Source of the DNA: Diplonema papillatum
Lineage: Eukaryota
Length of the DNA: 64,000 nucleotides
Reading direction: 5' to 3'
NCBI GenBank assembly: GCA_030068145.1
Contig: JAPJBO010000158.1
Location: 181,818-245,817, forward strand
Part shown: piece by piece, positions 22,590 to 57,558 of the stretch
Position numbering within the stretch: position 1 is the first letter of the stretch
Layout of the letters: the number at the start of each line of letters is the position of its first letter
Notes under the pieces: model-generated
What the model saw: only the letters and a program-made list of their open reading frames with translations
Databases searched by the model: none
Told to the model about the DNA's origin: nothing
Position numbers and translations under genes: made by a program

Positions 22590-23110
22590 CCCGACCCTCC
22601 ACCGCAAGTGCAGTCGAATGAACGTGTTGCTACTGCACACAAACACATTGGAAACATAGGCCAAGGCCTTCCAACTGCAAGTTCAGCTGAATGAACGGTT
22701 TGCTGAAGCCCGGCAAGCACGGCGAACACTGCGTGTCCGCAATACTCGAGCACGAGTGTTCAATGGCAACTGCAGTCGAATGAACGTTCTGCTGGGCGTT
22801 GCTACTGTACACAAACACATTGGAAACATAGGGCAAGGCCTTCCAACTGCAAGTTCAGCTGAATGAACGGTTTGCTGAAGCCAGGCAAGCACGGCGAACG
22901 CAATACTCGTTCAATGGCAACTGCAGTCGAATGAACGTTCTGCTGGGCGTTGCTACTGTACACAAACACATTGGAAACATAGGCCAAGGCCTTCCAACTG
23001 CAAGTTCAGCTGAATGAACGGTTTGCTGAAGCCCGGCAAGCACGGCGAACACTGCGTGTCCGCAATACTCGAGCACGAGTGTTCAATGGCAACTGCAGTC
23101 GAATGATCGT
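22590..23110. repeat. tandem repeat, ~150-175-bp unit x3
   Basis: ctgcaagttcagctgaatgaacggtttgctgaagcc recurs at 22674, 22848 and 22997. Confidence 0.7.
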
Positions 23111-23450
23111 TTAGCTAAAAGCCACTCGCTGCGTGACTGAGCCCAGTAAAATGGGCGTTTCGCTGTAAGCCAGCGACGCGCTACACGCAAATCAAGCACG
23201 AACCGGCCGAAACTTCACTTCCGAGTGCCGAAGCGTGCTGAAGCAACTCCGCCGATTCTTAAGATCCAACATCGATCAAGAAGTACAGCAGGACCTGGTC
23301 CATGCTAGAGAGCACGCGAGACCTCCCTGGCCCCGCAACACCGGCACACCTACTTTTCGGGCTTCCGCCCAAGTCGAACACAATTCAGGCCCAGGCCCAG
23401 GGGGGCGGACTCGCGCGGGGGCGAGGAGAGGGGAAGAAGGGCGGGGGGGG

Positions 23451-26400
23451 ATGCACGCCCTCGTCCGCGCTTGTTTCTACAAGCAAGAATGGACGGCCGC
23501 GGAGGAAGACGCCCCAATAGACGTCGAGGCGTGCCGGGCGGTGAAGGGCTCCGGCGTGGCGGACCAGCCGGGGCGGCCGGGGGTGCGCAGTGTGTGGTTC
23601 AGCGAAGCGGCGTACGCGGATCCGGAAAAGAGGGACCAGCTGCCCTCCGGCGCCCGGACGCTGTACTGCGGGGGGGACGGGAGGGTTGCCCTCAGGGGCT
23701 TGAACAAGTTCAACGAGGTCGAAGACCTCGCTGAACTTCTCTGGAGCCCTGCAGTCAGGGAGTGGGTGACTCCCGTCTGCTTGCAGCGCAAGCTGGCGGG
23801 CTTCGTCGTCGTCCTCGGCCCCTGCGGCGAGGTGTCGTCGAAGCACACCCTGGCGGGTCGCCACGTCGACCTCGCGAAAACCATGCTCCGCGGCCGCGCC
23901 CGAGACCCAACGGCGCCCCGCGAGAAGGATGCAACCGCATCCCCCGCGGGTGGACGCATCAGTCGGGACCCCCACCACACCCCTCCGGCGGTGCCCGAAG
24001 GTGTCGACCCTTCTCCGATCTGCGAAGCGAGAGCTTCGGAGACAAGGAGGGTTGGCGCTGATGTGATGCATGCCCCGTTGGATGAGGGTGTCGGAGCGTC
24101 GCTAGAGGGGATGGGTGGGGTTGACAAAGGGCTGACGTTGCGTGATGGGAAGCCGCTTGCGCTCGTTTGCGAGGCGGCGCCGGAGCAAGACCCAAAGCAC
24201 CTCGTCTGCGAAGCGAGAGCTTCGGAGACGATGGGTGGCGCTGGTCTGCTGCATGCCCCGTTGGGTGAGGGTGTCGGAGCGTCGCTAAAGGGCATTGCGG
24301 GGCTGACGTCGCGTGATGGGAAGCCGCTCGCGATCGTTTGCGAGGCGGTGGCACCGGAGCAAGACCCGTGGCACCCCGTCGTCGAGCCTTCGGAGCACCA
24401 CGGCCTGCGCCCTGTGGCCGTGATCGCGGCGCGCGAGAGGAGGGAGGAGAGTTACCCCGAGCTTCTGCTGCCCGTCTGCGCAGCCCTCGGCCTGCAGCCC
24501 GCGGACACCGCCCCGATGTCGTGGGCTTCCTTCGAAGCCGCGGTCCTCGGCGCCTCGCGATGCACGACAGACCCGCACGCCGAAACGGAGGGTCTCGTCG
24601 CAACGTTCTCGGTCCCGGCGGCCGTCGTGGCCGCCGTGTTCGCCGGCCGACCCCTCCCCGCCCGTCTGCCCCCGTCCGCGCCGCTAGCGCACTTCCGCGT
24701 CAAGATCAAGACGCTCAGGTACCGGCTCAAGCGCCGGTGGAGGCACTTGGTCCAGCAAATCCCGGCGGCAGCCGCGTGCGCGGAGGGCTCGGGCGCGGCC
24801 GCAGGGACCTCCTCTCCAGCCGGCGCCGCCGGAGTTTCCCGCAGCAGCCACGGCGAAGGGCTTCCGGATTCGATGCCGCGCGCCCACGCTCTCTCGTCCG
24901 AAGGCGAAGGAGAGTTGCACGCTGCATCCACCTCGCACCCCACAGCTGCAGCAGGCAACGTTCAACCTGAAAGCATCGACGGTCTCCCGTGCGAGCAGGT
25001 ATTGCGGGCCGCGCCAAGCACCAGCTCGACCGATCGCAAACTTCCACCTGACGGCACCAGCCTTTCCCGCACCCAAGTTCACCCGTCCGAAGGAGGGTTG
25101 CAGGTAGCAACCACCTCCCTCCCGACCGCCGCAGGCAACGCGCAACGTGAAACCCATGCCCCCCCGCCCGAACAGGACTCGCTGGCGACGGGCGGCCCTG
25201 CGCCGGCCGAAGCTGTCGAGACGAGCCCGGCGGCTGCCGCCGCCCCGTTCTGCCCGCCGCCGGCCGTCGCGCGGTGGCTCGCCCGGCAGTGGCCTGCGTG
25301 CGACGACGGCGAGAAGGCGCTGCTGAGCTACTTGTTCGGTGACGCCGGGCTCCCGAGCCGACTCCAGCTGCTGCGCTCCGGCGGCGGCGGGCCCGCGTCG
25401 CGGCTCGAGCGGGCGGCCCTGGCCGCGGCGGCCGGCGCAGCGCCCCAAGCCGAAGGCCGCGGGCCCCCCGCAGCTGAGGATTCGACCGCAGCCGACCCCG
25501 GCGAGTGGCCGTACTCGCGGGTTTTGAAGGGAGTCGGCGTGACGGAGGTGTTCGACGGGTTCGAGGCGTTCGTCCGGCACAGCCGGGGCGAGCGGGCGTT
25601 CGCGGCCTGGACGGACTACCTCCAGGGGCTGACCCCCCCTGTCCCCCCCCGTGCGCACACTTTGGTCATGTCCGTGGGGCTTCCGGGGAGTGGGAAAAGT
25701 GTGTTGATGTCCGAGTTGAGCCAGCAAATCGCCGTCGGACACGACGCGGTGTTCATCGCGCGGGACGACGTGACCGTCCAGGAGAGGACCCGCCTGCGCA
25801 AATCGGACGTGTCGCGCCACGTACACGCTGCGATCCAAAAGCTCACCCAGGCGGTCCTCAAGCAAGCGACGGCGCCGACTGTCGTTTTCGTCGACGGGTG
25901 CCACCTTACCCCGGGCAGTCGCGCTGCGGTCGCGAAGCACTTCGAGCGCGTGCTGTACCTCAACGCCCGCTGCCCGCCGGCCGTCGCCATCGCGCGGGTC
26001 AAGGCGAGGCACGGGCACCCCACGCTGGCCCCGGACAAAGCCGAGGCAGTCGTCAACCTGTTCTCGGAGCGGCTCTCGTTTCCGAGGGGCCGCGAGACCC
26101 TGCAACATTGCACCGCGAAGCCGCCGACTACCCAGCGACCGAAGCCGCCGACTACCCAGCGACCGACCCCCAGCGAAGCCGTTGACACCTCGATGGATGC
26201 GACAGTCGTCAACCTGTCCTCGGAGCGGCCCTCGTTCCCGGGGGGGTTTGAGATGGAACGGCAACCCGGCGTCGCCAAGCCGCCGACTACCCAGCGACCG
26301 ACCCCCGGCGAAGCCGTTGACACCCCGATGGATGCGACGGTCGTCAACCTGTCCTCGGAGCGGCCCTCGTTCCCGGGGGGGTTTGAGATGGAACGGCAAC

Positions 26401-27632
26401 CCGGCGCCGCGAAGCCGCCGACCACCCAGCGACCGACTCCCGGCGGAGCCGTTGACGCCCCATTGGATGCGGATGCGGACGCAGCCGAGGCACCCGCCGA
26501 CTGCCGCACGTCAACGACAAAGGTCGTTGACGTCGACACGACAGCACCGGTCGACCTCCGCAGTCTGCTGGAGGAGCTTGTTGTCTTCCACGCCGCGTCC
26601 GGGTGCGGCGCTGCGCGGAGGCCGCGGTTAACGCCGCTCGCCGACATTCCGTCGAGGTACCTGCCGGCGACGTCGGTCCTGCTTTCCGAGCTGTCGCTGA
26701 GCCCTCCCACCGCGTGCCTCTCCTCGCAGTTGACGACCGTTGCGATCAAACCGGCCGAGACGGCGGACCCCCCCGCGAACCCGTGGACCCGCGCGTTGCA
26801 GGACACCCTCTCGTACTGCACCGCGTGGGCGACCGGCAAGCGCCCCCTCCCCGCCGACGACGTCGGCGGAGCCTCCGCGAAGCGGCGGAAGCTGGCGGGC
26901 GCCTGGGCCCCTGCGGCCGGCGCCGCGCTGCGTGCCGTAGCCGCGTTCGCCATGGCAGGCGGCGCCGGGGGCGGGCCGGTGGGGGAGGGTGCCGTGGGGC
27001 TGTCGCCCGTGCACGGCGGGGCGTCGGTCCTGTGGCTGCGGGGAGCGCTGAAAAAGCAGCTGCACCACCGCCCGGGGCTCGGGGGTCCGGACGAGGCGCT
27101 GGCGTGCCTGTACAACACGGCGGCGGCGGCGGACGCGCTGCACTGCACCGTCGTGCATTTGGCGGGCAGGCTGCCCGACGACGACGGGGAGTTGACCGTC
27201 GCTCTCGAACTGCTCCGGAAGAGGGACCAGTACGAGAACAGACCGTGCGACCTGGTTTGCGACCGGCTCGTGTGCGATGCGAAGGGGATTTGTCTCGCGG
27301 TCGAGAAGCTGTCGCTGCTCGCGGGAGTAGAGGGAGAGGAACGTGACCCGGCGATGGGTGGAGCCGCCGCTTCGTTGCGGCTGCCGGCGGCTTGCGGGGC
27401 GCACGTAACCCTCGGCGTTGCGCAGGGGGTCCCGCCGAAGTACTGCGGCGAGCTCGTGAGGAGCGTTGACCAGTGGCACGCGCACAACGAGCAGCTGACT
27501 GCCGCCAGGAGTGACCGCAAGCGAGGGGGCCCCGCCGGAGAAGCGCCGCCGCCGAAGGCCAAGTTCCACAACTGCGCGTCGCTGGCCCTGCACCCGCCTA
27601 TCGTGTTGCGTGGCACTGTTGTGTTTGAGTAG
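23451..27632 (+). CDS. Trl1-type tRNA ligase / RNA end-healing-and-sealing protein: ligase-like N-terminus, P-loop polynucleotide kinase, 2H cyclic phosphodiesterase; several low-complexity insertions
   Basis: The continuous ORF 23235..27632 is taken from the first ATG at 23451. Candidate ligase motifs are KGSG, EGLVA and VKIKT. The Walker A motif is GLPGSGKS. Two H-x-T-x motifs (HCTVVH and HVTLGV) lie about 95 aa apart at the C-terminus, which is the 2H hallmark. A ~44-aa unit (AKPPTTQRPTPGEAVDTPMDATVVNLSSERPSFPGGFEMERQPG) is repeated three times. Confidence 0.5.
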   Translation: MHALVRACFYKQEWTAAEEDAPIDVEACRAVKGSGVADQPGRPGVRSVWFSEAAYADPEKRDQLPSGARTLYCGGDGRVALRGLNKFNEVEDLAELLWSPAVREWVTPVCLQRKLAGFVVVLGPCGEVSSKHTLAGRHVDLAKTMLRGRARDPTAPREKDATASPAGGRISRDPHHTPPAVPEGVDPSPICEARASETRRVGADVMHAPLDEGVGASLEGMGGVDKGLTLRDGKPLALVCEAAPEQDPKHLVCEARASETMGGAGLLHAPLGEGVGASLKGIAGLTSRDGKPLAIVCEAVAPEQDPWHPVVEPSEHHGLRPVAVIAARERREESYPELLLPVCAALGLQPADTAPMSWASFEAAVLGASRCTTDPHAETEGLVATFSVPAAVVAAVFAGRPLPARLPPSAPLAHFRVKIKTLRYRLKRRWRHLVQQIPAAAACAEGSGAAAGTSSPAGAAGVSRSSHGEGLPDSMPRAHALSSEGEGELHAASTSHPTAAAGNVQPESIDGLPCEQVLRAAPSTSSTDRKLPPDGTSLSRTQVHPSEGGLQVATTSLPTAAGNAQRETHAPPPEQDSLATGGPAPAEAVETSPAAAAAPFCPPPAVARWLARQWPACDDGEKALLSYLFGDAGLPSRLQLLRSGGGGPASRLERAALAAAAGAAPQAEGRGPPAAEDSTAADPGEWPYSRVLKGVGVTEVFDGFEAFVRHSRGERAFAAWTDYLQGLTPPVPPRAHTLVMSVGLPGSGKSVLMSELSQQIAVGHDAVFIARDDVTVQERTRLRKSDVSRHVHAAIQKLTQAVLKQATAPTVVFVDGCHLTPGSRAAVAKHFERVLYLNARCPPAVAIARVKARHGHPTLAPDKAEAVVNLFSERLSFPRGRETLQHCTAKPPTTQRPKPPTTQRPTPSEAVDTSMDATVVNLSSERPSFPGGFEMERQPGVAKPPTTQRPTPGEAVDTPMDATVVNLSSERPSFPGGFEMERQPGAAKPPTTQRPTPGGAVDAPLDADADAAEAPADCRTSTTKVVDVDTTAPVDLRSLLEELVVFHAASGCGAARRPRLTPLADIPSRYLPATSVLLSELSLSPPTACLSSQLTTVAIKPAETADPPANPWTRALQDTLSYCTAWATGKRPLPADDVGGASAKRRKLAGAWAPAAGAALRAVAAFAMAGGAGGGPVGEGAVGLSPVHGGASVLWLRGALKKQLHHRPGLGGPDEALACLYNTAAAADALHCTVVHLAGRLPDDDGELTVALELLRKRDQYENRPCDLVCDRLVCDAKGICLAVEKLSLLAGVEGEERDPAMGGAAASLRLPAACGAHVTLGVAQGVPPKYCGELVRSVDQWHAHNEQLTAARSDRKRGGPAGEAPPPKAKFHNCASLALHPPIVLRGTVVFE

Positions 27633-28669
27633 ACGTGCGTGCGCCGAAGGCTGCACTTCACAGCAGGCGACGCGGAGAAAAAAGCTATGAGAACAGCCGT
27701 CCTCCGTTGCGTCGAAAGCCTCATGTGCAGGAGAAGAGATCCGACGGGTGACAGGACCGATACTTCTTGAAGGCTGCCTTGTATGACATGACGACAAGGT
27801 CGAACGCCGTGCAGCTTCAAACACTTCCGGTGATGCGCGCTTGCCTCGTCTTTGATCAACTGCGACGGCAAGAAGTTGCACAACTTCTGGATGTTCGACC
27901 AACATCGAGAGCGAAGTTGTGTCAGCTACGTCCGACACTCATCATCTGCGCTCACGCAAAACAAATTGTTGAACGAACAAACATGGGAGTATTTGCAGCC
28001 CTTTGCCCGCCTCCCGCAATGCGTCTCACAGCTGCGTTGGGGGTATGGGCTCTTGTCGCGTAAGCGGGAGCACTCAAAATGAGTATCACACTATACACCG
28101 CCTGGCAGAGTGACCGTCCAGAGTGACTCACGGTTAGGCTCTGCGCGATTTGGCGTGTGGCTCGAAACCGGAACCTCGTCACTTTCTGGCCGCATCCTTT
28201 GCAGCGGTCGCAATGTCAAATTGACTGATCAAAACGGACCTTGCTTGCGCAATCCCATCTAGCCTCGCCAATAGCCGTGCCGGGACTTGAAGCGAGAACA
28301 CTTTCCCTTTTTTGTACGATCAAAACTTGCAGGAGGCCCTACAAAGTAGGTGCGAACACCAAGAAGACATCGACACGTGTGTTTTTGATGGTTGATCAAA
28401 GTTCCTGGCCTGAAAAAGGGAACCAGACAAAACCGATCAACCAGCAACTGTGTTGGCGAAATGTTGCGTGGAAATAAGCTTGGGCGAGGTCACCTGGGGT
28501 TACGGAGGGTGTACCGTTAAGCTTTCTGTAACCAACCACAGTGGGACTCCCGCGTCTGTGCCGAGAGTACAAAGCTGCAACCCAAGAACCCCACTCAGGT
28601 CACCAAAAAAGGAGAACCCCCTCCCAAAAAACACAAACGAAGCACAACCCACAACCCAAAAAGGCGAAC

Positions 28670-29491
28670 ATGGCGCCGCAGGCTGTCGTCATCCGGCTGA
28701 AGAGGGACGAGTACATCCACGTGCTGGACAACAACGAGAACACGACGACGTGCGTGATCGGCCCGGTGACGTTCACCCGGAAGAGCCACGAGGAGGTCGT
28801 GCTCGGGCCGCTGAAGTGCGTCGCGCTGCCGCCGCAGACGTACTGCCGGATCTTGAACCCATGCGCGCGGGGCGCCGGCGGCGCGCCGGAGGTCGACGGC
28901 AACGGAGAAGTGCGCGTGCGGTTCGGCGAAGAGGAGGTCCGCGTCAACGACGGCACGAAGTGGCGCACGCCGTTTCCCCTCTACCCGGGTGAGGAGCTGG
29001 TCGAGGGTGCCCTGAAGGGCGGGCAGCCTATCAAGAAGCTCACCGTCGTGGCAAAGAACACCGCGTTGAAGCTGCGCGCCGAGCAAGACTTCACAGCAGA
29101 AGACGGCACCGAGCGGAAAGCGGGCGACGAGTGGATGTTCGAAGGGCCGGCGACGTACGTGCCGAACGAAAAAGTGAAGTTCGTGTCGAAGGTAAACGCG
29201 CACATCGTCAGGTCCGACGAGGCGCTGCACATCCGGGCCCGCATCGCGTTCACCGACCGCAACGGGAAGGCGCGCAAAGGAGGCGAGGAGTGGCTCGTCA
29301 GAAACGACGGCGCCTACCTCCCGTCCGTCGAGGAAGAAGTGGTCGCCACCATCGGCGCCCGCGTCATCACCGACCGCAAAGCCATCGAAGTCGAGGCGCT
29401 CACCACGCACACCGACGCCTTCGGCAAGAAACGCGCGGCCGGCGAGAGATGGCTGGTCACTTCGAAGGAAACCTCCTCGTTCATCCATGAG
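28670..29491 (+). CDS. MVP: major vault protein, exon 1
   Basis: MAPQAVVIRLKRDEYIHVLDNNENTT..PLYPGEELVEG..AGDEWMFEGPATYVP aligns with the human MVP N-terminal repeat domains. A donor GTTTGC lies at 29492. Confidence 0.85.
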
Positions 29492-29754
29492 GTTTGCCGG
29501 TTTCTTGCTCACCCCAGCCCAGTGACGTGTGCGCACTCGTGCGCACCGATTTTCAAAAAACGTGCGCACGGCTGCACGGCGCAGTGTAGCCAAACGGTGC
29601 GCACGCGTGCGCACCGATTTTCAAAAAAGTGCGCACGGCCGCACCCTCGCACGGCATGCCGTGCGCACCCATCACTGCCCTAGCCTAGGGGCTGTCGCAA
29701 CCTCGGCAGCCCGAAGTGAAATTGCGCACACAAAATGGGAACCCGCTTCATTCG

Positions 29755-29912
29755 TGGCGCCGACGAGGCGATCCTCGTCCGCGCCGTCGAGAAGCTGAAC
29801 GACGGCAACCACGACCGCACCGCCGGCGACCGCTGGCTGCTGCGCGGGCCGCTTGAGTACGTTCCGCCGGTCGAAGTCGAGATCCTGGACAAGCGGAAGA
29901 CTATCCCGCTCG
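29755..29912 (+). pseudogene. 158-bp intronic duplicate of an MVP exon-2 segment (pseudo-exon)
   Basis: 29755-29912 is nearly identical to 30264-30421 ([52 protein letters not shown]). It is followed by unrelated sequence and lies inside intron 1. Confidence 0.6.
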
Positions 29913-30061
29913 ACTGCCATCCGGAACCAGATTACCGGGAAAGTGTCGATGGTCGGCCGGTGACTCTATATACCACCGCACCCGACCTTATATCTCCTCA
30001 ATCTCAAAAAGAATCGCCACACCGAAGAACAGTCAACATCAATCAAAAACTCTTAAACCAG

Positions 30062-31306
30062 GTCACGGAGAAGATCACGCGGACGGTGCCGCTCACGACG
30101 CTGAGCAACCGGCAGTACTGCGTCGTGATCGACCCCATCAAGAACGGGGTCCAGATGTTCGGGCACCGGGAGATCCGGCGGGGCGTCGGCGAGGGCACCA
30201 GCTTCTTCCTGTACCCGGGTGAGCGGCTCGAGAACGACAAGGTGCAGGACGTCCAGGTCCTGGGCGCCGACGAGGCGATCCTCGTCCGCGCCGTCGAGAA
30301 GCTGAACGACGGCACCCACGACCGCACCGCCGGCGACCGCTGGCTGCTGCGCGGGCCGCTTGAGTACGTTCCGCCGGTCGAAGTCGAGATCCTGGACAAG
30401 CGGAAGACCATCCCGCTCGACGAGAACGAAGGAGTGTACATCCGTAACCAGACCACCGGGAAAGTGTCGATGGTCACCAACACGGCGCACATGCGCGAAG
30501 CCGACGAGGTGCTCTGGGAGAAAGAGCTCCCGGATGTGGTCGAAAAGCTGCTGCAATCGTCTGGCACGTTGAACCGCGTCCAAGACGGAAAGCAGGCGGC
30601 CGCGGCCAGGGACAAGACCCGCGCCGTGCGGTTCAACATCGCGCACAACGCCGCAGTGCAGATCTACGACTACGCCGGAAAGGAGCCGACCGTCGTGTTC
30701 GGCCCCGACCTGGTGATGCTCAAGCCGGACGAGTGCTTCACGGTCCTGTCCCTCAGCGGGGACACGCCGAAGGTGCCGAACGTGATCAAAACGATCCAGC
30801 TCGGCCTCGGGCCGGACTTCATGACCGACGTCATCACCGTCGAAACTAGCGACCACGCCCGGCTCGAGCTGCGGCTTTCGTACAACTGGCGATTCGACGT
30901 TTCCGCGGCGTCCGACCCGGAGGAGGCGAAGAAGATATTCTGCGTGCCGGACTTCGTCGGCGACACGTGCAAGGCGATCGCAGGCCGCATCCGTGGACAG
31001 GTCGCCATGGAGTCCTTCGAGGCGTTCCACAGGAACTCGGCGCTGATCATCTGCACCGCGGTCTTCGGGCTGGACGACAACAAGAACGTGAAGAAGACGC
31101 TCGAGTTCCCAGCCAACAAGCTCGTCATCGTCAACGTCGACATCCAGAGCGTCGAGCCCGTCGACCAGCGCACCCGCGACTCGCTGCAGAAGTCCGTGCA
31201 GCTAGCCATAGAGATCATGACCAAGTCGCAGGAAGCCGCCGCCCGCCACAGGGCCGAGCGCGAGGCGCAGAAGGCAAACAGCGAGCTCGAGAGACGGAAG
31301 CTAAAG
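30062..31306 (+). CDS. MVP: major vault protein, exon 2
   Basis: The AG acceptor at 30060-61 keeps the frame (intron 29492-30061 = 570 nt). [45 protein letters not shown] matches [45 protein letters not shown]. ...SVEPVDQRTRDSLQKSVQLAIEI also matches. Donor AAG|GTATAT at 31307. Confidence 0.85.
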
Positions 31307-31589
31307 GTATATCACCCCTCCCACCTGGGCGGCCTCCGCCCGTGCGGTACCCATTCCAAGCACGTTCTTGCAATCCCACCTGGGCGGCCTCCACCCGTGA
31401 CGGATTCGCCTGTGCTCTGGTAGCACGGGTGGTCCTGGCTGTGGCGAGCTACGAACAGCCGCCTGACAAACCAGACTCACACCGCTGTCCTGTCTGCAGA
31501 CACTCAGGTTCCGCGCTGATGATGGTCCGCCTTATGTGTCCGTGGCTTGAAGGACCGAAACACGGCGCAGACGGGACCGGTGCGGCGTT

Positions 31590-37299: not shown

Positions 37300-40200
37300 A
37301 AGCGAAGTTGCACTCTAGCAACCAGTCTCAATACTGCACCACCAAACCCTTGTCTAGAACCGAGTTTCATTTCTACGGACCTTAAGAAATGGGGAGATGA
37401 GACCGTGAGTACCCCAAATACGACACAGGGTAAAAACCAGGGACGCCGATTAACTGGCACATCTTGCTGCTGGGCCAGACCAGACGAGTTCTGAAACCGC
37501 TGAAGTCCATCTACGACACCCTCGTCAGGCGGTTCAAGCTCCCCCTCGGGGTCGGAAAGGAGTTTCAGGTGACGAACGGCATTCTGCAAGGGTGCCCTAT
37601 CTCGGTCATCCTGATCAACGCGCTGCTGTCAGTGTTGATGAAGGCGGTAAAAGTCGAGGCACCAGGCGTGTCGACGCAGTCGTACGCAGACGATGCGAAT
37701 TTGTTGGCGAAGCACTCCGAGGCAGATCTGCAACGGGGCGCGGACTTAGTCGATGAGTTCTGCGCGCTGACCGGCATGTCGCTGAACATGGAGAAGACGG
37801 TAACGTTCGCGACGGGGCTGGGCCGTAGGACGAAGATCTTCCGCAGCAGCACGGGCGAGCAGTTCGCACAGAAGGAATCGCTGAAGTGCCTGGGGGCTAA
37901 GGTGAGCACCTCACGCAGCGGCCGCGACCACTTTGACTCTTCCCGGTTTGAAGCAGCAGCAACCACAGCTCGGAACCTACGGCACGTCCCAATTCCGAGG
38001 CAGCAGAAAACCCTCATCGTTCAATCAGCCATCCTGCCCGCCGCTCTCGCGAGAATATCGTTCGCGCCCCCTACGACTGAAGCCGTGGAGAAGCTGGCGA
38101 CAGCGTTAACGAGAGCGATCTGGGGGCCGAAGAATCCGAAGCGCTCCTCGGAAGTAGTCTTGGGAGTCCTCGAAAAAGCCCACTTGACGCACCCTGCGAC
38201 GGCGACGGCGTACCGAATAACCGCGGATTTCTACAGCGCCTGTGGGAGACTGCCGCACCTGATGCCGCTGATGACGGAAGTCCGGCGCCTATACGGCGAA
38301 CGAGTGACCGCAGCCCTTGGCCCGGTGGGAACCGCGGTAAGGCACGGCCTGCAACCCTGCGGCCACACGTGGAACGGCGGCCCGCCGTCGTCCGTCAACC
38401 TGGACGGAGCTGCACTCCGACCCCTGGCAATGTCCGCCTCCTCGCGAAATCACATCATCCGCGACAACCTGCGGAACCGACTGTGGAAGCGGTTGGAAAC
38501 ACGACGGCCAAGCTTCTCCGGCATCACCAACATCGCGATCGAGTCCACCAACGCTCTATGGACAACGCGCCACTGTCCGCCCCAGAACGCGCTGCTGATC
38601 AGGGTTGCCCTCGCAGGTGGCGTGAACACCGCCGAATACACGTCGAGATTTCGCCAAGGCGGAAGCCCCGCCTGTACGTTGTGTGGCTCGGGAGCATTGG
38701 AAGACGAGCACCACGTCTACTGGGATTGCACGGCCTTCGAGAACATACGCACGAAGCCCGAGTACGCGGGGATCGCACAGTCCGACAGGAGGCTCTGGCC
38801 GAGCTGCCTGCGGGAGCACGGAATCGTGACGCCGGCGACACGGGAATTTGCCGGGCCGGTACAAGCGCTGATGGCAGAGATCCTGGCGGAGCGGGCGCGC
38901 CGGATCAGCGTTAGATGGCTAGAACGTAAGGCGGCGACCCCCTGGGAGCGCTGCGCGCAGATGCCAACGGCGAAACGCGAGTTCCCGTTCCGGCGCATCG
39001 CCCCGGCCTGGGCGTGGCTACGCTACTGGGACGAAGGGACATTCCTGGCAGCGATCGACTGGCTCTCGGGCCTCGAATGGTCATCGGATGGCGACATGGC
39101 AGCGGTAGAGGCAGCTATCGACTTCGAGCTGTTCTCGGGCCTCGACATCAAGGCACCTAGCAAGGCGGCCAAGACGCATCGGGAGAAGGCCAACGGGATG
39201 CGCTGCATGTTGAGCGCAATCAACAAGCTGGCCGTGCAACAACAACTCGGCAAGTGCCTCCCTGGCGACTTCAAGTCGAAAACTACAGCCTTGTCGTTCA
39301 TAGGCCTGAGCAGCGTACCCGGCTTCCAGCCCCGGCCCCGCCACCGCATGCCCGAAACCGGGCCGACCATCATGCAGCAGGTGAAAACCGGCTACGGCAC
39401 AGCGCCGGCGTACCCGCCCGAGCGGACGGACAGAGCGCGGCGATGGGTAATCCCCAGAGCGCCACTGGCCAACCCGGATCCCCTGCACCTCCCACACGCA
39501 GTGCCGGAGGCGACGAAGAATGCCCCCAAGTGCGCTACCCATCACAAAGGGAAGTGCGCAGTCTGTCGCGCACTCGGACACCACCACGGCCCTACGGTGG
39601 AGGCATGTTGCCGACACCACCACGCCGACAACGACGGCTTACCTCCGGCCGTCTGCGACCGGCACCGCATGACGAGATGCGTGGAGTGCAACACGCCAAC
39701 AGCGTGCTGCAAGGCCGGCCACCATGACTGCCGCGAACACGCCCGCGGTCCGTGTGACGACTGCCGCGGCTTACCGACGCTAGCGGAACGGCGGCCGTCA
39801 GCCTGCTGCAAAAAGGGCCACCACGTGCCAGCGCCCCCGAAGCCAGCCCCCGCTAAGCCGAAGCCAACAACGCCGCGGAAGAAGGGCCGACAGAAGCCGA
39901 CGACACCACCGCGCATGAAGAGGACGCGTCAAGCGTCCCCAAAGGCGGCCAAGATGGCGAAAAAGCACGCTCCGACCGAGCCGGCCCGAGCGACACCACC
40001 AAGGAAGGGGCAGAAAAGAGCCCGACTCCCGACACCACCGAATGACCCGGCGGGAAAACCCGGAAAAAAGCACGCGGCGCGAAAGCGCAACATTTCGAGA
40101 ATGGAGCTGGATATCACCAGCCCTGCCACCTCGACTTCATCCTCATCCATGTCAGGATCGCCCCCTCGAGCGACTGCTTCGGCAGGACAGCCGGCGCGAA

Positions 40201-40365
40201 AGCGCAACAAACGAAGAATGGAGCTGGATATCACCAGCCTATTATCACCGTCCTCGTCCGCTTTGAGATCGTCCTCGGACGACGTATTCAAATAACCCTA
40301 GCCTATGACAAATGCAAGCTTACCCCTGTGGTACCTGCATTTCAAGTTCACACTGCTCAACATGC
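37300..40365 (+). mobile_element. 5'-truncated non-LTR retrotransposon (LINE): partial RT, zinc-knuckle, long Cys/His- and Lys/Pro-rich C-terminal tail; no poly-A
   Basis: ORF 37464..40295 carries RT motifs FQVTNGILQGCPISVIL and SYADDANLL but lacks the upstream RT motifs and any endonuclease. The 3' end is set by comparison with the fragment at 32048-32232. Confidence 0.8.
37464..40295 (+). CDS. LINE ORF2-like polyprotein remnant (reverse transcriptase C-terminal part + CxxC...HHxxxxC zinc knuckle + basic tail)
   Basis: YADD box; CTLCGSGALEDEHHVYWDC. The tail contains a tandemly duplicated RKRN..RMELDITS unit. Confidence 0.75.
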   Translation: MLLGQTRRVLKPLKSIYDTLVRRFKLPLGVGKEFQVTNGILQGCPISVILINALLSVLMKAVKVEAPGVSTQSYADDANLLAKHSEADLQRGADLVDEFCALTGMSLNMEKTVTFATGLGRRTKIFRSSTGEQFAQKESLKCLGAKVSTSRSGRDHFDSSRFEAAATTARNLRHVPIPRQQKTLIVQSAILPAALARISFAPPTTEAVEKLATALTRAIWGPKNPKRSSEVVLGVLEKAHLTHPATATAYRITADFYSACGRLPHLMPLMTEVRRLYGERVTAALGPVGTAVRHGLQPCGHTWNGGPPSSVNLDGAALRPLAMSASSRNHIIRDNLRNRLWKRLETRRPSFSGITNIAIESTNALWTTRHCPPQNALLIRVALAGGVNTAEYTSRFRQGGSPACTLCGSGALEDEHHVYWDCTAFENIRTKPEYAGIAQSDRRLWPSCLREHGIVTPATREFAGPVQALMAEILAERARRISVRWLERKAATPWERCAQMPTAKREFPFRRIAPAWAWLRYWDEGTFLAAIDWLSGLEWSSDGDMAAVEAAIDFELFSGLDIKAPSKAAKTHREKANGMRCMLSAINKLAVQQQLGKCLPGDFKSKTTALSFIGLSSVPGFQPRPRHRMPETGPTIMQQVKTGYGTAPAYPPERTDRARRWVIPRAPLANPDPLHLPHAVPEATKNAPKCATHHKGKCAVCRALGHHHGPTVEACCRHHHADNDGLPPAVCDRHRMTRCVECNTPTACCKAGHHDCREHARGPCDDCRGLPTLAERRPSACCKKGHHVPAPPKPAPAKPKPTTPRKKGRQKPTTPPRMKRTRQASPKAAKMAKKHAPTEPARATPPRKGQKRARLPTPPNDPAGKPGKKHAARKRNISRMELDITSPATSTSSSSMSGSPPRATASAGQPARKRNKRRMELDITSLLSPSSSALRSSSDDVFK

Positions 40366-41693: not shown

Positions 41694-42544
41694 GTGGGAG
41701 GGGCGTCTGTTTTCATTGCTTCGACATCGTTCGACTACTTGGGCTCTTGTCGCCGCCGCGGGGCTTGCGCGTATCTTTTTGTTTCATCCTCTCTTGCGAA
41801 CACATGTTTTGGCGGGGTTTGGCTGCGGCGGCGCATGCGCATCATGTGTCCTTATGCAAACTCGGAACAGAAATCGTTGCTCGATACCCGATCCTCGCCT
41901 ACGAACGCATGGGCGACAGAGAAATGGCCGCAAGCCCGTTGCTTTTGGACCCTCTGATGTCGGCTCGTCCTGGCCTAGACGAGCAGAATTGTCTAAGGGC
42001 TGGTTCAACACCCTAACGTGAGCTGGGTGTAGACCATCAACCGTAGTTTAGCCCCCCTCAACCCATTTTGATCTTATCCCTCAAACCCAGCACCAATAAC
42101 AACGACGTCAGACACCACTTCAGTGCCGTCAGGCTTTAGCGAAAGTTTTTCGAGTGGGGCCCACCGTGGGAAGATCATTTTCTCGCAGCTTGTGCAGTTT
42201 GGATGAGGGGTTGTGGGTTCGGATCCTTGTCTTTTTTAGACGACAGTTTTCCTACACGTCGTCAATTCTTCCACATTCCAGTGTGTGACGAAACTGAACC
42301 GCCCGAGTTGGACCTCCGATCATGATCCAAATTCCACCTGCAACCACGAATTTACAGTGTCAGTGCAAACGACTAATCGGGTCCTGGCCGAATCCAACCC
42401 AGAGCTGACCGGATCTGGGGAGTTCTATATACTGCTCAGCCCATCATACTCTCCAGGAGGAAACATACAAGTCGAAAACGTATGGCGCTTTCTTTATTTG
42501 ACGTGGGCGGCTTTAGATTTACATCTGAATGACACCTCAATACA

Positions 42545-42702
42545 AAAAAAGTTGTCGACAACTAACAAGTAAAAGAATAAAACAAAACTACGCGTTTCTT
42601 TTGTATCTGGCGGAACTCACCTGCTCAGGCAAGTCTCGTGTAGTACGCTGCCAACGACTAATTTTAGTAACGTTTGCCAAAATGCATTGTTACCACAAAA
42701 AA
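42545..42702 (-). ncRNA. SL-RNA-like element, copy c (intact CAG|GTGAGTTCCGCC donor), divergent to and ~85 bp upstream of the FMO start
   Basis: The minus strand reads ...cgttactaaaattagtcgttggcagcgtactacacgagacttgcctgagcaggtgagttccgccagatacaaaagaaacgcg... Confidence 0.3.
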
Positions 42703-42786
42703 ACAGGCAACAGAGAGACCCACACACACACCGCGGTCAACTCGGTTGATCTGCCGAGGAAAAAAAAAAAAGGAAAAAAAGGAGAA

Positions 42787-44244
42787 ATGGCACATCAAGA
42801 CAGCGAACACCTCGATGTCATAATCGTGGGGGCGGGGCTGTCCGGGGTCGATGCAGCGTATTACCTGCAGAAGATGTGCCCGCAGAAGACGTACGCGATC
42901 CTTGAGGGGCGGGCGGCCCTGGGCGGCACGTGGGACCTGTTCAGGTACCCGGGGGTTCGGTCGGACTCCGACATGTTCACCCTGGGCTTCTCCTTCCAGC
43001 CGTGGCGCGATCCGACGTCGATAGCGGACGGCGGCAGCATATTGGAGTACATCCGCTCCGCCGCGGAAACCCAAGGCATCGACAAGAAAATCAGGTACAA
43101 CCACTGGGTGAAGTCCTCGTCCTGGAGTACGCCGGAGGCCCGCTGGACCCTCTCCGTCAAAACGGCGGCCGGCGAGGTTCGGCTGACGTGCCGGTTCCTC
43201 GTAATGTGCAGCGGGTACTACAGCTACGACAAGGGGCACACTCCGGCGTTCAAAGGAGCCGACCAGTTCGGGGGCCGCATCGTCCACCCGCAGCAGTGGA
43301 CCCCCGACATTGTGTACGAGGGCAAGAAAGTGGTCGTGATCGGCAGCGGGGCGACCGCCGTGACGTTGGTGCCGTCGCTCGCCGAAACCGCGGAGCACGT
43401 GACGATGCTGCAGCGGTCGCCGACGTACATCGTCCCGCAGCCGAAAACGGACCCTCTCGCGGCGACCCTCTTCAAGTGGCTCCCCGCCAGCTGGGCCTCG
43501 TTCCTCGCGCGCTGCAAGCAGATCTTCATGTCGCAGTTCGTGTACTGGATGTGCCTGATCCAACCCGCGAAGATGAAGGCGGAGTTCCTCGGCTTCGCGA
43601 AGCGGAGCCTGGGCGGCGACGCGGAGATGGTCGCCAAGCACTTCACGCCGTCGTACAACCCGTGGGACCAAAGGATCTGTCTGGACCCCAATGCTGTCTT
43701 TTTCAAGTCGATCCGAGCCGGGAAGGCTTCGGTTGTGACTGAGGAGATAGACCGGTTCGTGGATTCGGGTGTTAAGCTCGTGTCGGGCGAGGTTTTGCCC
43801 GCAGACCTCATTGTGACGGCGACCGGCTTGGACATGGTGGTGTGGGGGAACATGGCCTGCGAAGTCGACGGGAAGTGCGTCGTGTCTTCTGACATCATGA
43901 CCTACAAGGGCATGATGTTTACGGGCGTCCCCAACTTGGTTTCTATCTTTGGATACGTCAACGCGTCTTGGACGCTCAAGGCCGACCTCATCTGCGAGCA
44001 CACCTGCAGGTTGATCAACTACATGGATTCGCACGGGTACAAACAGTGCGTCCCGCGGTGCGACGACGAGGAAGTGCAGCAGTTGCCGCTGTTCACGCTG
44101 TCCTCCGGGTACATGCAAAGGGGGAGGTCCATCATGCCGAAGCAGGGCACCAAAGCGCCGTGGACCATCAACCAGAACTACTTCCGCGACCTGGTGGCTC
44201 TCCGGCACGCAACCGTTGCGAATGATGCCTTGAAGTTTGCTTGA
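42787..44244 (+). CDS. flavin-containing / Baeyer-Villiger-type monooxygenase (bacterial-type class B FMO), single exon
   Basis: 485 aa. FAD GxGxxG motif IIVGAGLSGV. A second nucleotide-binding motif VVVIGSGATAV. An FMO-like ...DLIVTATG...GNMA... region. Uninterrupted ORF. The antisense ORF 42664..44208 is spurious. Confidence 0.85.
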   Translation: MAHQDSEHLDVIIVGAGLSGVDAAYYLQKMCPQKTYAILEGRAALGGTWDLFRYPGVRSDSDMFTLGFSFQPWRDPTSIADGGSILEYIRSAAETQGIDKKIRYNHWVKSSSWSTPEARWTLSVKTAAGEVRLTCRFLVMCSGYYSYDKGHTPAFKGADQFGGRIVHPQQWTPDIVYEGKKVVVIGSGATAVTLVPSLAETAEHVTMLQRSPTYIVPQPKTDPLAATLFKWLPASWASFLARCKQIFMSQFVYWMCLIQPAKMKAEFLGFAKRSLGGDAEMVAKHFTPSYNPWDQRICLDPNAVFFKSIRAGKASVVTEEIDRFVDSGVKLVSGEVLPADLIVTATGLDMVVWGNMACEVDGKCVVSSDIMTYKGMMFTGVPNLVSIFGYVNASWTLKADLICEHTCRLINYMDSHGYKQCVPRCDDEEVQQLPLFTLSSGYMQRGRSIMPKQGTKAPWTINQNYFRDLVALRHATVANDALKFA

Positions 44245-56903: not shown

Positions 56904-57558
56904 GTATCCATCCCTCCTCACCAGGGCTGGACCCCTCAAAGTTTCATACCCCACTTGGGGAGCCCTACACTCCCCTTTTTACCTTTTTCCATTTTTGCAT
57001 CATAGACGAATGGTGTCTGGGGGGGGCCTTCACGAGACGACACTGTTGACCGCACCCTAATTGAGTTGCGGTCGCCGATCCCCAACCGCCAGCATCATGT
57101 ACTTGACGCGACGCGGAACGAACTGCTGCTTAGCAGCCAATGGCCTGTGATGGCTGAGTGCACACCTAAGCACGACTGCATCCTCGTGTTGTAGCCGTGT
57201 CGTGTAAAAGGCTTCGTGGGGGCCTGGTCAACCACCTCATTCACTATAGGCACAAACCTTTCGCGACCTCGGAACAGGACCGAAAGTCTCCGTCCGAAGG
57301 ACCCGCTGATGAGCTACCTTTGGATTGGTCTGCGTTCACGAGCGAACCTCGAGACAAAGAACGAGGTACTGCGGTGGAAAATAATAAAGAGGACCAGTCC
57401 CTCAAGGTTTCATACCCTGCCTGCGGAGTCTTACCATACACGCGTTTTTGAATGGAGCACACCAGCTTTTCGGGGTGTCTTGGGCATCTTTCCTTCACTC
57501 CGGCTGGATTCCACTGTGTGTGTATCACATCGGGGTTCGATTCCTGCCCACTACACAG

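Follow-up and report, generated by a model that had tools for sequence, protein, structure and literature searches.

A Trl1-type RNA ligase gene of Diplonema papillatum enlarged by in-frame insertions and self-duplications

The three-in-one enzymes of the Trl1 family rejoin tRNA halves after intron removal in fungi, plants and trypanosomes. For the fungal members, the references are the S. cerevisiae enzyme (827 aa), the Chaetomium thermophilum ligase domain (LIG; 6n0v/6n67), whose residue roles have been described (PMC6379707), and the Candida albicans kinase-phosphodiesterase part (KIN-CPD; 6u00). Plant tRNA ligases have motif variants of their own (IIIa, Pnk; PMC4931112). In Trypanosoma brucei, mutation of K107, K403 or H802 of TbTrl1 abolishes rescue of TRL1 RNAi. 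Vertebrate CNPase and fish RICH consist of a P-loop-like N-domain and a 2H phosphodiesterase.

The window analysed here is the whole stretch of 64,000 nucleotides, from Diplonema papillatum, an organism also named Paradiplonema papillatum. One of its genes encodes, with good confidence from sequence, the D. papillatum orthologue of euglenozoan/fungal Trl1, a single polypeptide that would heal and seal 2',3'-cyclic phosphate/5'-OH breaks.

The gene and its three domains

The open reading frame runs on the + strand from ATG 23451 to the stop at 27632 (1393 aa). Under the bacterial start rule a longer ORF is called from a GTG (23235-27632, 1465 aa), and the preliminary description, which gave a single ORF of 1393-1465 aa, covered both forms. 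The first in-frame ATG, 23451, is taken as the true start because the N-terminus MHALVRACFYKQEW lines up with homologue N-termini and because the product equals the NCBI protein 'RNA ligase/AAA domain containing protein [Diplonema papillatum]' (100% identity, 100% coverage); the C-terminus also lines up with those of homologues. The 1393 codons contain zero stops while the other frames contain several per sub-region, an openness far from chance, and GC3 is 0.84-0.87 across the conserved parts. The orthologue P0003, in another genome, is likewise an uninterrupted ORF. The features of the conserved parts are as follows.

23451..27632, + strand: complete single-exon CDS of a Trl1-type RNA ligase, 1393 aa + stop (ORF call; NCBI protein; alignment of termini)
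23451..23906, + strand: ligase domain, first part, aa 1-152 (PDB profile match to Chaetomium Trl1-LIG; invariant columns in 36 sequences)
within 23451..23906, + strand: Rnl1-like N-submodule, R69, K86-F87 (residue roles from PMC6379707)
23790-23801, + strand: motif I, K114-LAG (K114 opposite Lys148 of Chaetomium Trl1-LIG)
23838-23846, + strand: motif Ia, S130-K131-H132 (invariant columns, 36 sequences)
24207..24755, + strand: ligase domain, second part, aa 253-435 (alignments; hhalign against fungal LIG, 99.5-99.6%)
24336-24347, + strand: motif III, E298 (VCEA), on repeat copy 2 (alignments)
24372-24374, + strand: H308, on repeat copy 2 (alignments)
24588-24602, + strand: motif IV, E380-GLVA (alignments)
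24699-24713, + strand: motif V, VK418-IK420-T (alignments)
24732-24743, + strand: R428-x-x-R431 (alignments)
25251..25592, + strand: region between ligase core and kinase, aa 601-714 (conserved with diplonemid homologues)
25593..26105, + strand: polynucleotide kinase domain, aa 715-885 (Pfam AAA_33; hhalign against fungal KIN, 95-96%; PDB matches; invariant columns)
25677-25700, + strand: P-loop GLPGSGKS (invariant columns)
25764-25766, + strand: kinase D772 (invariant columns)
25920-25922, + strand: kinase R824 (invariant columns)
25995-26009, + strand: kinase R849-x-x-x-R853 (invariant columns)
27003..27629, + strand: 2H cyclic phosphodiesterase domain, aa 1185-1393 (hhalign against fungal CPD, 97-98%; PDB 2H matches; invariant H/T columns)
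27141-27149, + strand: H1231-C-T1233 (invariant H/T columns)
27402-27410, + strand: H1318-V-T1320 (invariant H/T columns)

In profile-profile comparison (hhalign) each third matches its cognate fungal Trl1 domain, with probabilities of 99.5-99.6% (LIG), 94.8-96.4% (KIN) and 97.3-98.1% (CPD) and all cross-domain controls at <=0.4%, which bears out the ligase-kinase-CPD order proposed earlier. Fungal-domain HMMs also recognise the D. papillatum sequence alone (LIG 3e-11, CPD 7e-5, KIN 2e-3). Searched against the PDB, the ligase part finds solved Trl1 ligase domains (1.5e-7 with a three-sequence profile, 2e-19 with a family profile), and K114 pairs with the adenylylated lysine of the Trl1 structure, a position where the K148M entry 6n0t has Met. 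The kinase domain scores 38 bits with Pfam AAA_33 (cut-off 27) and matches the Rhizopus kinase and PSTK, and the CPD profile retrieves 2H enzymes only (RICH 4e-6, CNPase 1e-4, fungal tRNA ligase KIN-CPD 0.03). By itself the sequence stays below the Pfam cut-offs for RNA_lig_T4_1 (18.3 bits, or 24.5 without the insertions, against 28.3) and tRNA_lig_CPD (14.2 against 23), so that the ligase and CPD assignments come from the orthologues and the profile comparisons. A CNPase-like protein of kinase plus CPD only is ruled out by the N-terminal ligase domain, which keeps its nucleotidyltransferase motifs.

Among the motifs named in the preliminary description, EGLVA (aa 380-384) and VKIKT (aa 417-421) align as motifs IV and V, and the Walker A GLPGSGKS lies at aa 743-750. 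The proposed motif I, KGSG (aa 32-35), falls in a variable region; motif I is instead K114 in QRK-LAG-F, which lines up with Lys148 of Chaetomium Trl1 and K107 of T. brucei and T. congolense Trl1. The H-x-T pair is found as HCTVVH (aa 1231-1236) and HVTLGV (aa 1318-1323), spaced by 87 residues and not ~95. The residues that correspond to the ATP, metal and 2'-PO4 sites of the Chaetomium enzyme do not vary in the aligned family. In motif IV, T385 occupies the place of the adenine-contacting Arg of fungal enzymes, and the aligned diplonemid sequences have no obvious aromatic residue of motif IIIa. The stretch aa 601-714, conserved helical segments broken by a Gly/Ala-rich insert, may correspond to the C-terminal subdomain of Trl1-LIG; its comparison with the fungal C-subdomain gives 6.6% probability and E 0.0056. 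AlphaFold models reached pLDDT 35 and 40, from an alignment of only three sequences.

An exhaustive HMMER profile search gave 268 matches: other diplonemids, a euglenid, kinetoplastids (among them T. congolense, with its orthologue of the essential TbTrl1) and, at greater distance and lower rank, fungal tRNA ligases. The 31 non-fungal matches aligned have 780-1393 aa, and the family alignment A3 holds 36 sequences, 34 of which contain Pfam RNA_lig_T4_1; the organisms looked up among them are R. humris, Sulcionema, Entosiphon, T. congolense and Bodo. In the NJ tree, with fungi as outgroup, the protein falls within a diplonemid group that adjoins groups holding the Entosiphon and T. congolense/Bodo sequences.

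Proposed mechanism and substrate

The sequence shows that all three domains are homologous to those of Trl1, that the catalytic residues are conserved and that the insertions are in frame and kept open; what the enzyme does, on which RNA, and how it shares the work with RtcB is inferred, with the homologous fungal enzyme as the model for the mechanism. At the C-terminus, the 2H domain (H1231/T1233, H1318/T1320) would open the cyclic phosphate to give 3'-OH/2'-PO4 ends, and the central P-loop kinase (K749/S750, D772, R824, R849/R853) would phosphorylate the 5'-OH. In the N-terminal ligase, K114 would be adenylylated, AMP passed to the 5'-PO4 and the nick sealed, the 2'-PO4 being recognised, in all likelihood, by H308 and R428/R431. 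By the example of T. brucei, the most probable substrates are exon halves of those nuclear tRNAs that carry introns, with general RNA repair as a possible second role. Nuclear tRNA genes with anticodon-loop introns do exist in D. papillatum.

Does the enzyme splice tRNAs in the presence of RtcB? D. papillatum has three RtcB copies besides Trl1 (PMC12699882). One of them, RTCB2, has a predicted nuclear location, clusters with the tRNA-splicing ligases of the archaeal/metazoan clade and is regarded as the tRNA ligase by the authors of that study, where the Trl1-type gene goes unmentioned. In vivo, Trl1 may thus have a redundant or a different role. It is possible that RTCB2 joins tRNA exons and that Trl1, with its chemistry retained, serves RNA repair, the mending of stress-induced tRNA or rRNA cleavage, or another cytoplasmic ligation, the two ligase systems being known to coexist in trypanosomatids and Branchiostoma. 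We consider this unlikely. T. brucei belongs to the sister lineage, and there the essential tRNA ligase is Trl1 despite RtcB, with all three activities required; the D. papillatum enzyme shows full conservation of its catalytic residues, those of the putative 2'-PO4 site among them; and RTCB2 was assigned as tRNA ligase from phylogeny alone.

Insertions and internal duplications

At 1393/827 = 1.68, the protein has the ~1.7-fold yeast length noted before. The enlargement had been ascribed to low-complexity insertions; the insertions are in frame, but part of them consist of structured coding sequence of this gene, duplicated in tandem. The features involved are the following.

23907..24206, + strand: D. 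papillatum-specific ligase insertion, aa 153-252 (not in P0002-P0005 or other homologues)
24021-24206, + strand: extra repeat copy 1, aa 191-252, ending the insertion (direct repeats D5-D7; z = 29)
24756..25250, + strand: D. papillatum-specific Ala/Ser/Pro/Gly-rich insertion after RxxR, aa 436-600, with a weak internal repeat, aa 485-508 vs 546-568 (gap in all homologues; repeat z = 3)
26046..26471, + strand: tandem array after the kinase (TRF; families D1-D4; unit translations; z = 28; absent from homologues)

The repeat in the ligase part does have two units, but of 62 and 58 aa (aa 191-252, 253-310) and not ~55, at a DNA spacing of 171-183 nt (local alignment z = 29, 0/300 shuffles). Copy 1 duplicates the helix-loop-motif III strand, ending ...LALVCEAAPEQDPKH, and copy 2, which retains the conserved W-H-P-V-x-E continuation, appears to be the functional one. 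After the kinase, the native C-terminal segment of that domain (AVVNLFSERLSFP...) forms an older proto-copy; behind it stand two complete units and part of a third, which read KPPTTQRPTP...VVNLSSERPSFPGGFEMERQPG. A 44-aa unit repeated three times had been described here; the repeat is present, with a unit of 45 aa (TRF at 26142-26471: period 135 nt, 2.4 copies, 94% identity) in addition to the proto-copy. The ~400 extra residues are lineage-specific in-frame insertions, including two tandem self-duplications, and most likely form tolerated surface loops or linkers. The gene belongs to the family as an ordinary member and has grown by duplicating parts of its own coding sequence in frame.

Could the insertions instead be unrecognised in-frame introns, leaving a mature protein of ~1000 aa as in the relatives? 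The best candidates are the blocks 23907-24206 and 24756-25250, exactly within which GC3 falls from 0.84-0.87 to 0.66 and 0.70 and which are missing from the transcript-derived R. humris protein and the other aligned homologues; the adjacent vault-protein gene has an intron, and high GC favours long chance open frames. This reading is nevertheless improbable. Both blocks are a multiple of three in length and stay free of in-frame stops, whereas their other two frames contain 5 and 6 in the first block and 1 and 3 in the second (P = 0.012 and 0.046 from sequence shuffles), and their overall GC is 0.66-0.70 against 0.53 in flanking non-coding DNA. The first block is an in-register duplication of coding sequence. 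The deposited NCBI protein equals the uninterrupted ORF, and the published annotation, in which introns are described as predominantly canonical GT-AG, was reproduced de novo from raw reads. Since they are open in frame yet lower in GC3, the blocks suggest young, weakly constrained loops.

A decaying gene, in which insertions and duplication in the ligase core inactivated at least sealing while RtcB covers ligation, is more doubtful still. The ~130 additional residues between motifs Ia and III, which include the duplicated motif III strand, could impair folding; the two repeat copies diverge almost neutrally (pN/pS about 0.9, small counts); and the lone sequence scores sub-threshold in Pfam. 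However, the 4.2-kb frame is intact, the conserved parts keep strong codon bias (GC3 about 0.85), copy 2 retains its continuation, and all three domains keep the catalytic and substrate-site residues that were checked, except at T385 and for the motif IIIa aromatic.

Least credible is a diplonemid-specific role in joining mitochondrial gene-module transcripts or removing non-canonical introns: diplonemid mitochondria require many RNA ligations, the responsible ligase has not yet been identified experimentally, and a proposed route for non-canonical introns involves an RNA ligase, but the protein starts with the conserved acidic beginning of the ligase domain and no presequence, the part of the mitoproteome supplement that was covered, which lists RTCB1, gave no Trl1, module transcripts reportedly have 3'-phosphate/5'-OH ends that fit RtcB and not Trl1, and D. 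papillatum introns are mostly canonical.

Comparison with known systems

Kinetoplastid Trl1 (TbTrl1, 870 aa; T. congolense P0017, 872 aa) has the identical LIG-KIN-CPD order and near-identical motifs (KLAG/KMAG, SKH, ..VCE/SCEC.., EG.V.,.K.K, RxxR, GxGK[ST], RxxxR, two HxT). K114, K749 and H1318 stand opposite K107, K403 and H803 of the T. congolense protein, the equivalents of TbTrl1 K107, K403 and H802, and RtcB is present alongside Trl1 in both T. brucei and D. papillatum. Identity is only 23-26%, and the D. papillatum protein is ~520 residues longer because it carries insertions specific to its lineage and is duplicated in tandem at two internal sites. Unlike kinetoplastids, D. papillatum adds a nuclear archaeal/metazoan-type RtcB.

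For fungal Trl1, all three domains are homologous in profile-profile comparison at 16-18% identity, and the residues of the ATP, metal and putative 2'-PO4 sites (R69, K86, F87, K114, K131, E298, H308, E380, K418/K420 and R428/R431) are kept. Motif I is KLAG instead of KxNG, and motif IV has Thr in place of the adenine-contacting Arg; in comparison with the fungal C-subdomain, the helical C-subdomain defining the 'Rnl6' clade is not demonstrable in D. papillatum. The CPD sequence is nearer CNPase/RICH, its best solved-structure matches (E 4e-6 to 1e-4, both HxT motifs aligned), than fungal CPD; CNPase has no ligase domain, whereas the D. papillatum protein has an N-terminal one of Trl1 type. 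The plant enzyme AtRNL (1104 aa), compared by description, is also a trifunctional ligase-kinase-CPD protein and requires a 2'-PO4 end. As for phage T4, the ligase lies on the Rnl1-like branch, and the P-loop/Asp/Arg arrangement of the kinase is one that we take to be of T4 Pnk type (Wang et al. 2002). The T4 Rnl1 and Pnkp are separate proteins, unlike the one-polypeptide D. papillatum enzyme, and the pair has a 3'-phosphatase in place of the 2H CPD and does not need a 2'-PO4.

Coding frame and surroundings of the Trl1 gene

On the plus strand, the reading frame of the candidate RNA ligase extends from 23235 to 27632 under the bacterial start rule and encodes 1393 amino acids from its first in-frame ATG, at 23451. 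The single long ORF of the preliminary description is borne out: NCBI lists its 1393-aa product, with 100% identity over the full length, as 'RNA ligase/AAA domain containing protein [Diplonema papillatum]'. No intron interrupts 23451-27632 in that deposited model, and the match makes the window nuclear DNA of D. papillatum, a diplonemid within the Euglenozoa. The N-terminus read from this ATG, MHALVRACFYKQEW, lines up with the N-termini of the homologues, and position 23451 is the true start. Codon-position statistics single out the same ORF as coding: its conserved parts have a GC3 of 0.84-0.87, and it is free of in-frame stops, of which the other frames have several per segment.

The following features accompany the gene in the window:

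77-3715, plus strand: ORF of about 1200 aa
3948-7514, plus strand: ORF of about 1200 aa
24684-26399, minus strand: 571-aa ORF, antisense to the Trl1 gene
25616-27883, minus strand: 755-aa ORF, antisense to the Trl1 gene
28541-31423, plus strand: major vault protein gene (Vault repeats, MVP shoulder domain), next downstream
37464-40295, plus strand: 943-aa ORF with an RVT_1 (reverse transcriptase) match
42529-44244, plus strand: flavin-monooxygenase-like ORF, an ordinary eukaryotic gene on the strand of the Trl1 gene
54146-57049, plus strand: glycosyl hydrolase family 63 (glucosidase I-like) ORF, an ordinary eukaryotic gene

Elsewhere, the long antisense ORFs resemble nothing but the opposite strand of the orthologue at L001, the locus of a relative from another genome (P0003). 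They were set aside as genes, consistent with their being by-products of a GC-rich coding sequence lacking opposite-strand stops. Beyond the Trl1 gene itself, nothing is shared in synteny between the window and L001. Neither of the two ORFs of about 1200 aa matches Pfam at E <= 1e-4 (around the second, GC is 72%), and the ORF with the reverse transcriptase match is presumably a retroelement. The vault gene consists of two ORFs parted by an intron with its GT start at about 29492; this intron contains tandemly repeated GTGCGCACCGATTTTCAAAAAA and an in-frame stop, and served as the local intron example. Upstream of the Trl1 gene, at 22900-23110 on the plus strand, a motif of ~45 nt (GCAATACTCG...TTCAATGGCAACTGCAGTCGAATGA) occurs twice, ~165 nt apart, as identified by eye.

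Family, domain order and active sites

Apart from the D. papillatum protein itself, three word-indexed protein searches retrieved two relatives, P0002 (Rhynchopus humris, 1008 aa) and P0003 (988 aa), and nothing more, probably because their candidate lists were taken up by low-complexity words. Reaching the family took an exhaustive search: HMMER with the three-sequence profile against 1.84 billion representatives gave 268 matches, the best of them proteins of 780-1393 aa. Exact look-ups among these matches identified Sulcionema specki (diplonemid), Entosiphon sulcatum (euglenid), Trypanosoma congolense (872 aa) and Bodo saltans, and a yeast protein named tRNA ligase (827 aa) stands further down the list. 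The matches also hold a large group of proteins of 710-780 aa (P0043, P0047-P0049, P0053, P0056 and others), in which a Rnl1/Trl1-like ligase module lies in the C-terminal half (matches at residues ~430-600), an architecture differing from that of Trl1.

In an alignment of 36 family members (31 non-fungal and five fungal), 34 match Pfam RNA_lig_T4_1 (PF09511) at E <= 0.001, and tRNA_lig_kinase and tRNA_lig_CPD are matched strongly by five, evidently the fungal ones. In a rough NJ tree, without support values, the D. papillatum protein falls among the diplonemids, which adjoin groups holding the Entosiphon and the T. congolense/Bodo sequences; the fungi lie outside. This placement fits vertical inheritance. 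Sequence comparison supports the view of the protein as the diplonemid orthologue of the well-studied Trl1; in other respects it is ordinary.

The order of ligase (LIG), kinase (KIN) and phosphodiesterase (CPD) claimed at the outset holds, since each third of the protein pairs with its cognate fungal Trl1 domain only:

hhalign, diplonemids only against fungal Trl1: LIG 99.5%, KIN 94.8%, CPD 97.3%; cross-domain <= 0.4%
hhalign, all Euglenozoa-type sequences against fungal Trl1: LIG 99.6%, KIN 96.4%, CPD 98.1%; cross-domain <= 0.4%

Compared segment by segment with fungal Trl1 profiles and the PDB, as had been suggested, the protein gives ligase, kinase and 2H matches. HMMs of the fungal domains detect them in the D. 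papillatum protein alone with E = 3e-11 (LIG), 7e-5 (CPD) and 2e-3 (KIN). In the PDB, the Chaetomium Trl1 ligase domains are reached by the three-sequence profile (E = 1.5e-7) and by a 27-sequence profile (2e-19); the kinase part matches a Rhizopus kinase (4.5e-13) and also seryl-tRNA(Sec) kinase. A CPD-only profile matches 2H phosphoesterases only (RICH, 4e-6; CNPase, 1e-4; Candida-type tRNA ligase KIN-CPD, 0.03). A phmmer search of the PDB with the full protein found only shikimate kinases, via the P-loop; only profiles reached the ligase and CPD structures. The preliminary description had allowed that the N-terminal region might contain no ligase, leaving a CNPase-like protein with kinase and 2H domains only; this is ruled out, as a Trl1-type ligase domain fills the N-terminal third.

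With the D. papillatum sequence alone, the curated Pfam cut-offs, which are a detection criterion and not a biological one, are passed for AAA_33 only. RNA_lig_T4_1 scores 18.3 bits, or 24.5 with the insertions trimmed, against a cut-off of 28.3, and tRNA_lig_CPD (PF08302) scores 14.2 against 23; the orthologue P0002 lies above the RNA_lig_T4_1 cut-off, at 43.5 bits. The helical C-terminal subdomain of Trl1-LIG gives 6.6% probability (E 0.0056) by hhalign in a region broken by insertions, where the resemblance to fungal (Rnl6-clade) Trl1-LIG is limited to a short G-x-G-[IV]-x-x-[LV]...F. AlphaFold2 models of aa 1-445 and aa 715-1393, built from three-sequence alignments, were uninformative (mean pLDDT 35.2 and 39.6), and Foldseek with the low-confidence model of aa 715-1393 gave 0 matches at E <= 0.001.

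The columns invariant in all 36 sequences are R69, F87, K114, G117, K131, H132, E298, E380, G381, K418, R428 and R431 in the ligase, G748, K749, D772, R824, R853 and H856 in the kinase, and H1231, H1318 and T1320 in the CPD; K86, R849 and T1233 are near-invariant. Every motif string first quoted is found in the protein, and nucleotidyltransferase motifs I (KxxG), Ia (SKH), III (E), IV (EGxV) and V (KxK; K418/K420) are all present. KGSG had been the candidate for motif I, but this string falls in a variable part of the N-terminal region, and K114 occupies the nucleophile column. The PDB profile alignments set QRK(114)LAGF opposite TLK(148)ENG of Chaetomium, where 6n0t has Met at 148 (K148M mutant), and this marks K114 as the adenylylation site.

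In the Chaetomium enzyme, Arg99, Lys120, Phe121, Lys148, Lys169, Glu218, His227, Glu300, Lys323/325 and Arg334/337 make the ATP, metal and sulfate contacts, the sulfate being taken as a 2'-PO4 mimic (PMC6379707). Invariant or near-invariant D. papillatum residues correspond to these contacts. In the Rnl1-like N-terminal submodule, R69, K86 and F87 are kept, equivalent to the ATP-contacting Arg99, Lys120 and Phe121, and the putative 2'-PO4 site consists of H308 and R428-x-x-R431, aligned with His227 and R334-x-x-R337; H308 is invariant in the 31 non-fungal sequences and the arginine pair in all 36. The kinase keeps the P-loop G748-K749-S750, D772, R824 and R849/R853 (GxGK[ST], Asp, RxxxR), and D772 is presumably its general base, by T4 Pnk and yeast mutagenesis. 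Two HxT motifs stand in the predicted 2H phosphoesterase domain, as first described, with a spacing of 87 residues rather than about 95. Between the second HxT and the C-terminus, a CPD segment specific to euglenozoans carries a basic cluster (R..RK, aa 1353-1357, window ~27507-27521; RKRRK in P0002 and P0003), which may be a nuclear localisation signal.

Insertions and internal duplications

Five blocks of the D. papillatum protein have no counterpart in any aligned homologue:

Block 1: aa ~153-252, with ~28 further residues within aa 261-289
Block 2: aa 436-600
Block 3: aa ~640-690
Block 4: aa ~880-1007
Block 5: aa ~1140-1190

These are missing from P0003, an uninterrupted ORF in its own genome. 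Two of the five arose by tandem duplication within the gene itself. The in-frame repeats first described are thus present, with units revised from ~55 to 58-62 aa in the ligase and from 44 to 45 aa after the kinase. In the ligase domain, residues 191-252 (copy 1) are repeated as 253-310 (copy 2), with a DNA spacing of 171-183 nt (z = 29), and both copies contain the helix, loop and motif III strand (LALVCEAAPEQDPKH and LAIVCEAVAPEQDPWHPV). Copy 2 alone runs on into the conserved W-H-P-V-x-E segment and aligns with motif III of all homologues, and it is therefore likely the functional copy. The divergence of the copies is almost neutral (pN/pS about 0.9, from small counts). The post-kinase duplication is an array with a 135-nt (45-aa) unit, in which two complete copies are followed by part of a third, seeded by the native end of the kinase domain (AVVNLFSERLSFP...). 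The gene is a clear natural case of a catalytic ligase domain tolerating tandem duplication of its own motif III strand.

Are all the insertions translated? The two largest blocks that are not repeat-rich have a GC3 of 0.66-0.70, lower than in the conserved parts, as might be expected if one insertion were an unrecognised in-frame intron. However, their lengths are multiples of three, they hold 0 in-frame stops against 5 and 6, and 1 and 3, in the other frames (shuffles, P = 0.012 and 0.046), and their overall GC content far exceeds the 0.53 of the non-coding flanks, which makes such an intron quite improbable. Dispersed repeats were also considered and rejected: within the window, the insertions match only themselves and each other. 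We read the insertions, from these sequence features, as young, weakly constrained, translated loops or linkers.

Probable role beside RtcB and comparison with known Trl1

By homology, the enzyme would act in three steps. The CPD would open the 2',3'-cyclic phosphate to give 3'-OH/2'-PO4, the kinase would phosphorylate the 5'-OH, and the ligase would seal the break via K114-AMP and AppRNA intermediates. The 2'-phosphate that Trl1-type joining leaves at the tRNA junction is removed by Tpt1; in the searchable text of one supplement, no D. papillatum Tpt1 was found.

The preliminary description had pointed to spliced tRNA genes and RtcB as relevant, and D. papillatum has both (PMC10161547; PMC12699882). 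Some of its 211 nuclear tRNA genes contain anticodon-loop introns (PMC10161547), so a classical Trl1 substrate exists; the 64-kb window, in which no tRNA genes were found, gives no local evidence on tRNA introns. There are three RtcB ligases, of which the nuclear RTCB2 is the tRNA ligase homologue according to the authors and RTCB1 is proposed for mitochondrial transcript assembly (PMC12699882). Trl1 appears in that paper only within a reference title, and in the recent diplonemid literature consulted RTCB2 alone is named as tRNA ligase, with the Trl1 gene unmentioned. The model diplonemid carries both eukaryotic tRNA-ligation systems, its Trl1-type enzyme coexisting with a nuclear RtcB assumed by the literature to be the tRNA ligase.

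In Trypanosoma brucei, where RtcB is also present, Trl1 is the essential tRNA ligase and cytoplasmic. This precedent favours tRNA exon ligation for the D. papillatum protein, a role that we consider probable with moderate confidence. The main alternative is that it serves RNA repair or is redundant with RTCB2. A mitochondrial role is unlikely: the protein has no presequence, it was not found in the searchable text of the mitoproteome supplement, and the reported 3'-P/5'-OH ends of the module transcripts suit RtcB, not Trl1 (PMC12699882). We give very little credence to a further scenario, in which an ancestral euglenozoan Trl1, kept beside three acquired bacterial-type RtcB ligases, would have been redeployed to lineage-specific RNA joining, replacing or besides tRNA splicing, with assembly of fragmented mitochondrial transcripts or excision of non-canonical introns as candidate tasks; under this scenario, the in-frame duplications might provide surfaces for new interactions. 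Because D. papillatum is genetically tractable, the identity of its tRNA-splicing ligase can be put to a direct test, and the answer bears on the partition of Trl1 and RtcB pathways in Euglenozoa, where trypanosomes depend on Trl1.

Differently from fungal Trl1, which has an adenine-contacting Arg in motif IV, the D. papillatum protein has Thr385, and the aromatic motif IIIa residue of the fungal enzymes is not evident in the diplonemid alignment. The motif strings of the T. brucei enzyme (TbTrl1), KLAG, TKH, AAVSCECI, EGYVV, LKAK, GxGKT, RxxxR and two HxT (PMC4931112), are matched by those of the D. papillatum protein. K114, K749 and H1318 align with T. congolense K107, K403 and H803, equivalent to TbTrl1 K107, K403 and H802, mutants of which do not rescue TRL1 RNAi in T. 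brucei (bioRxiv 10.64898/2026.08.16.745097).
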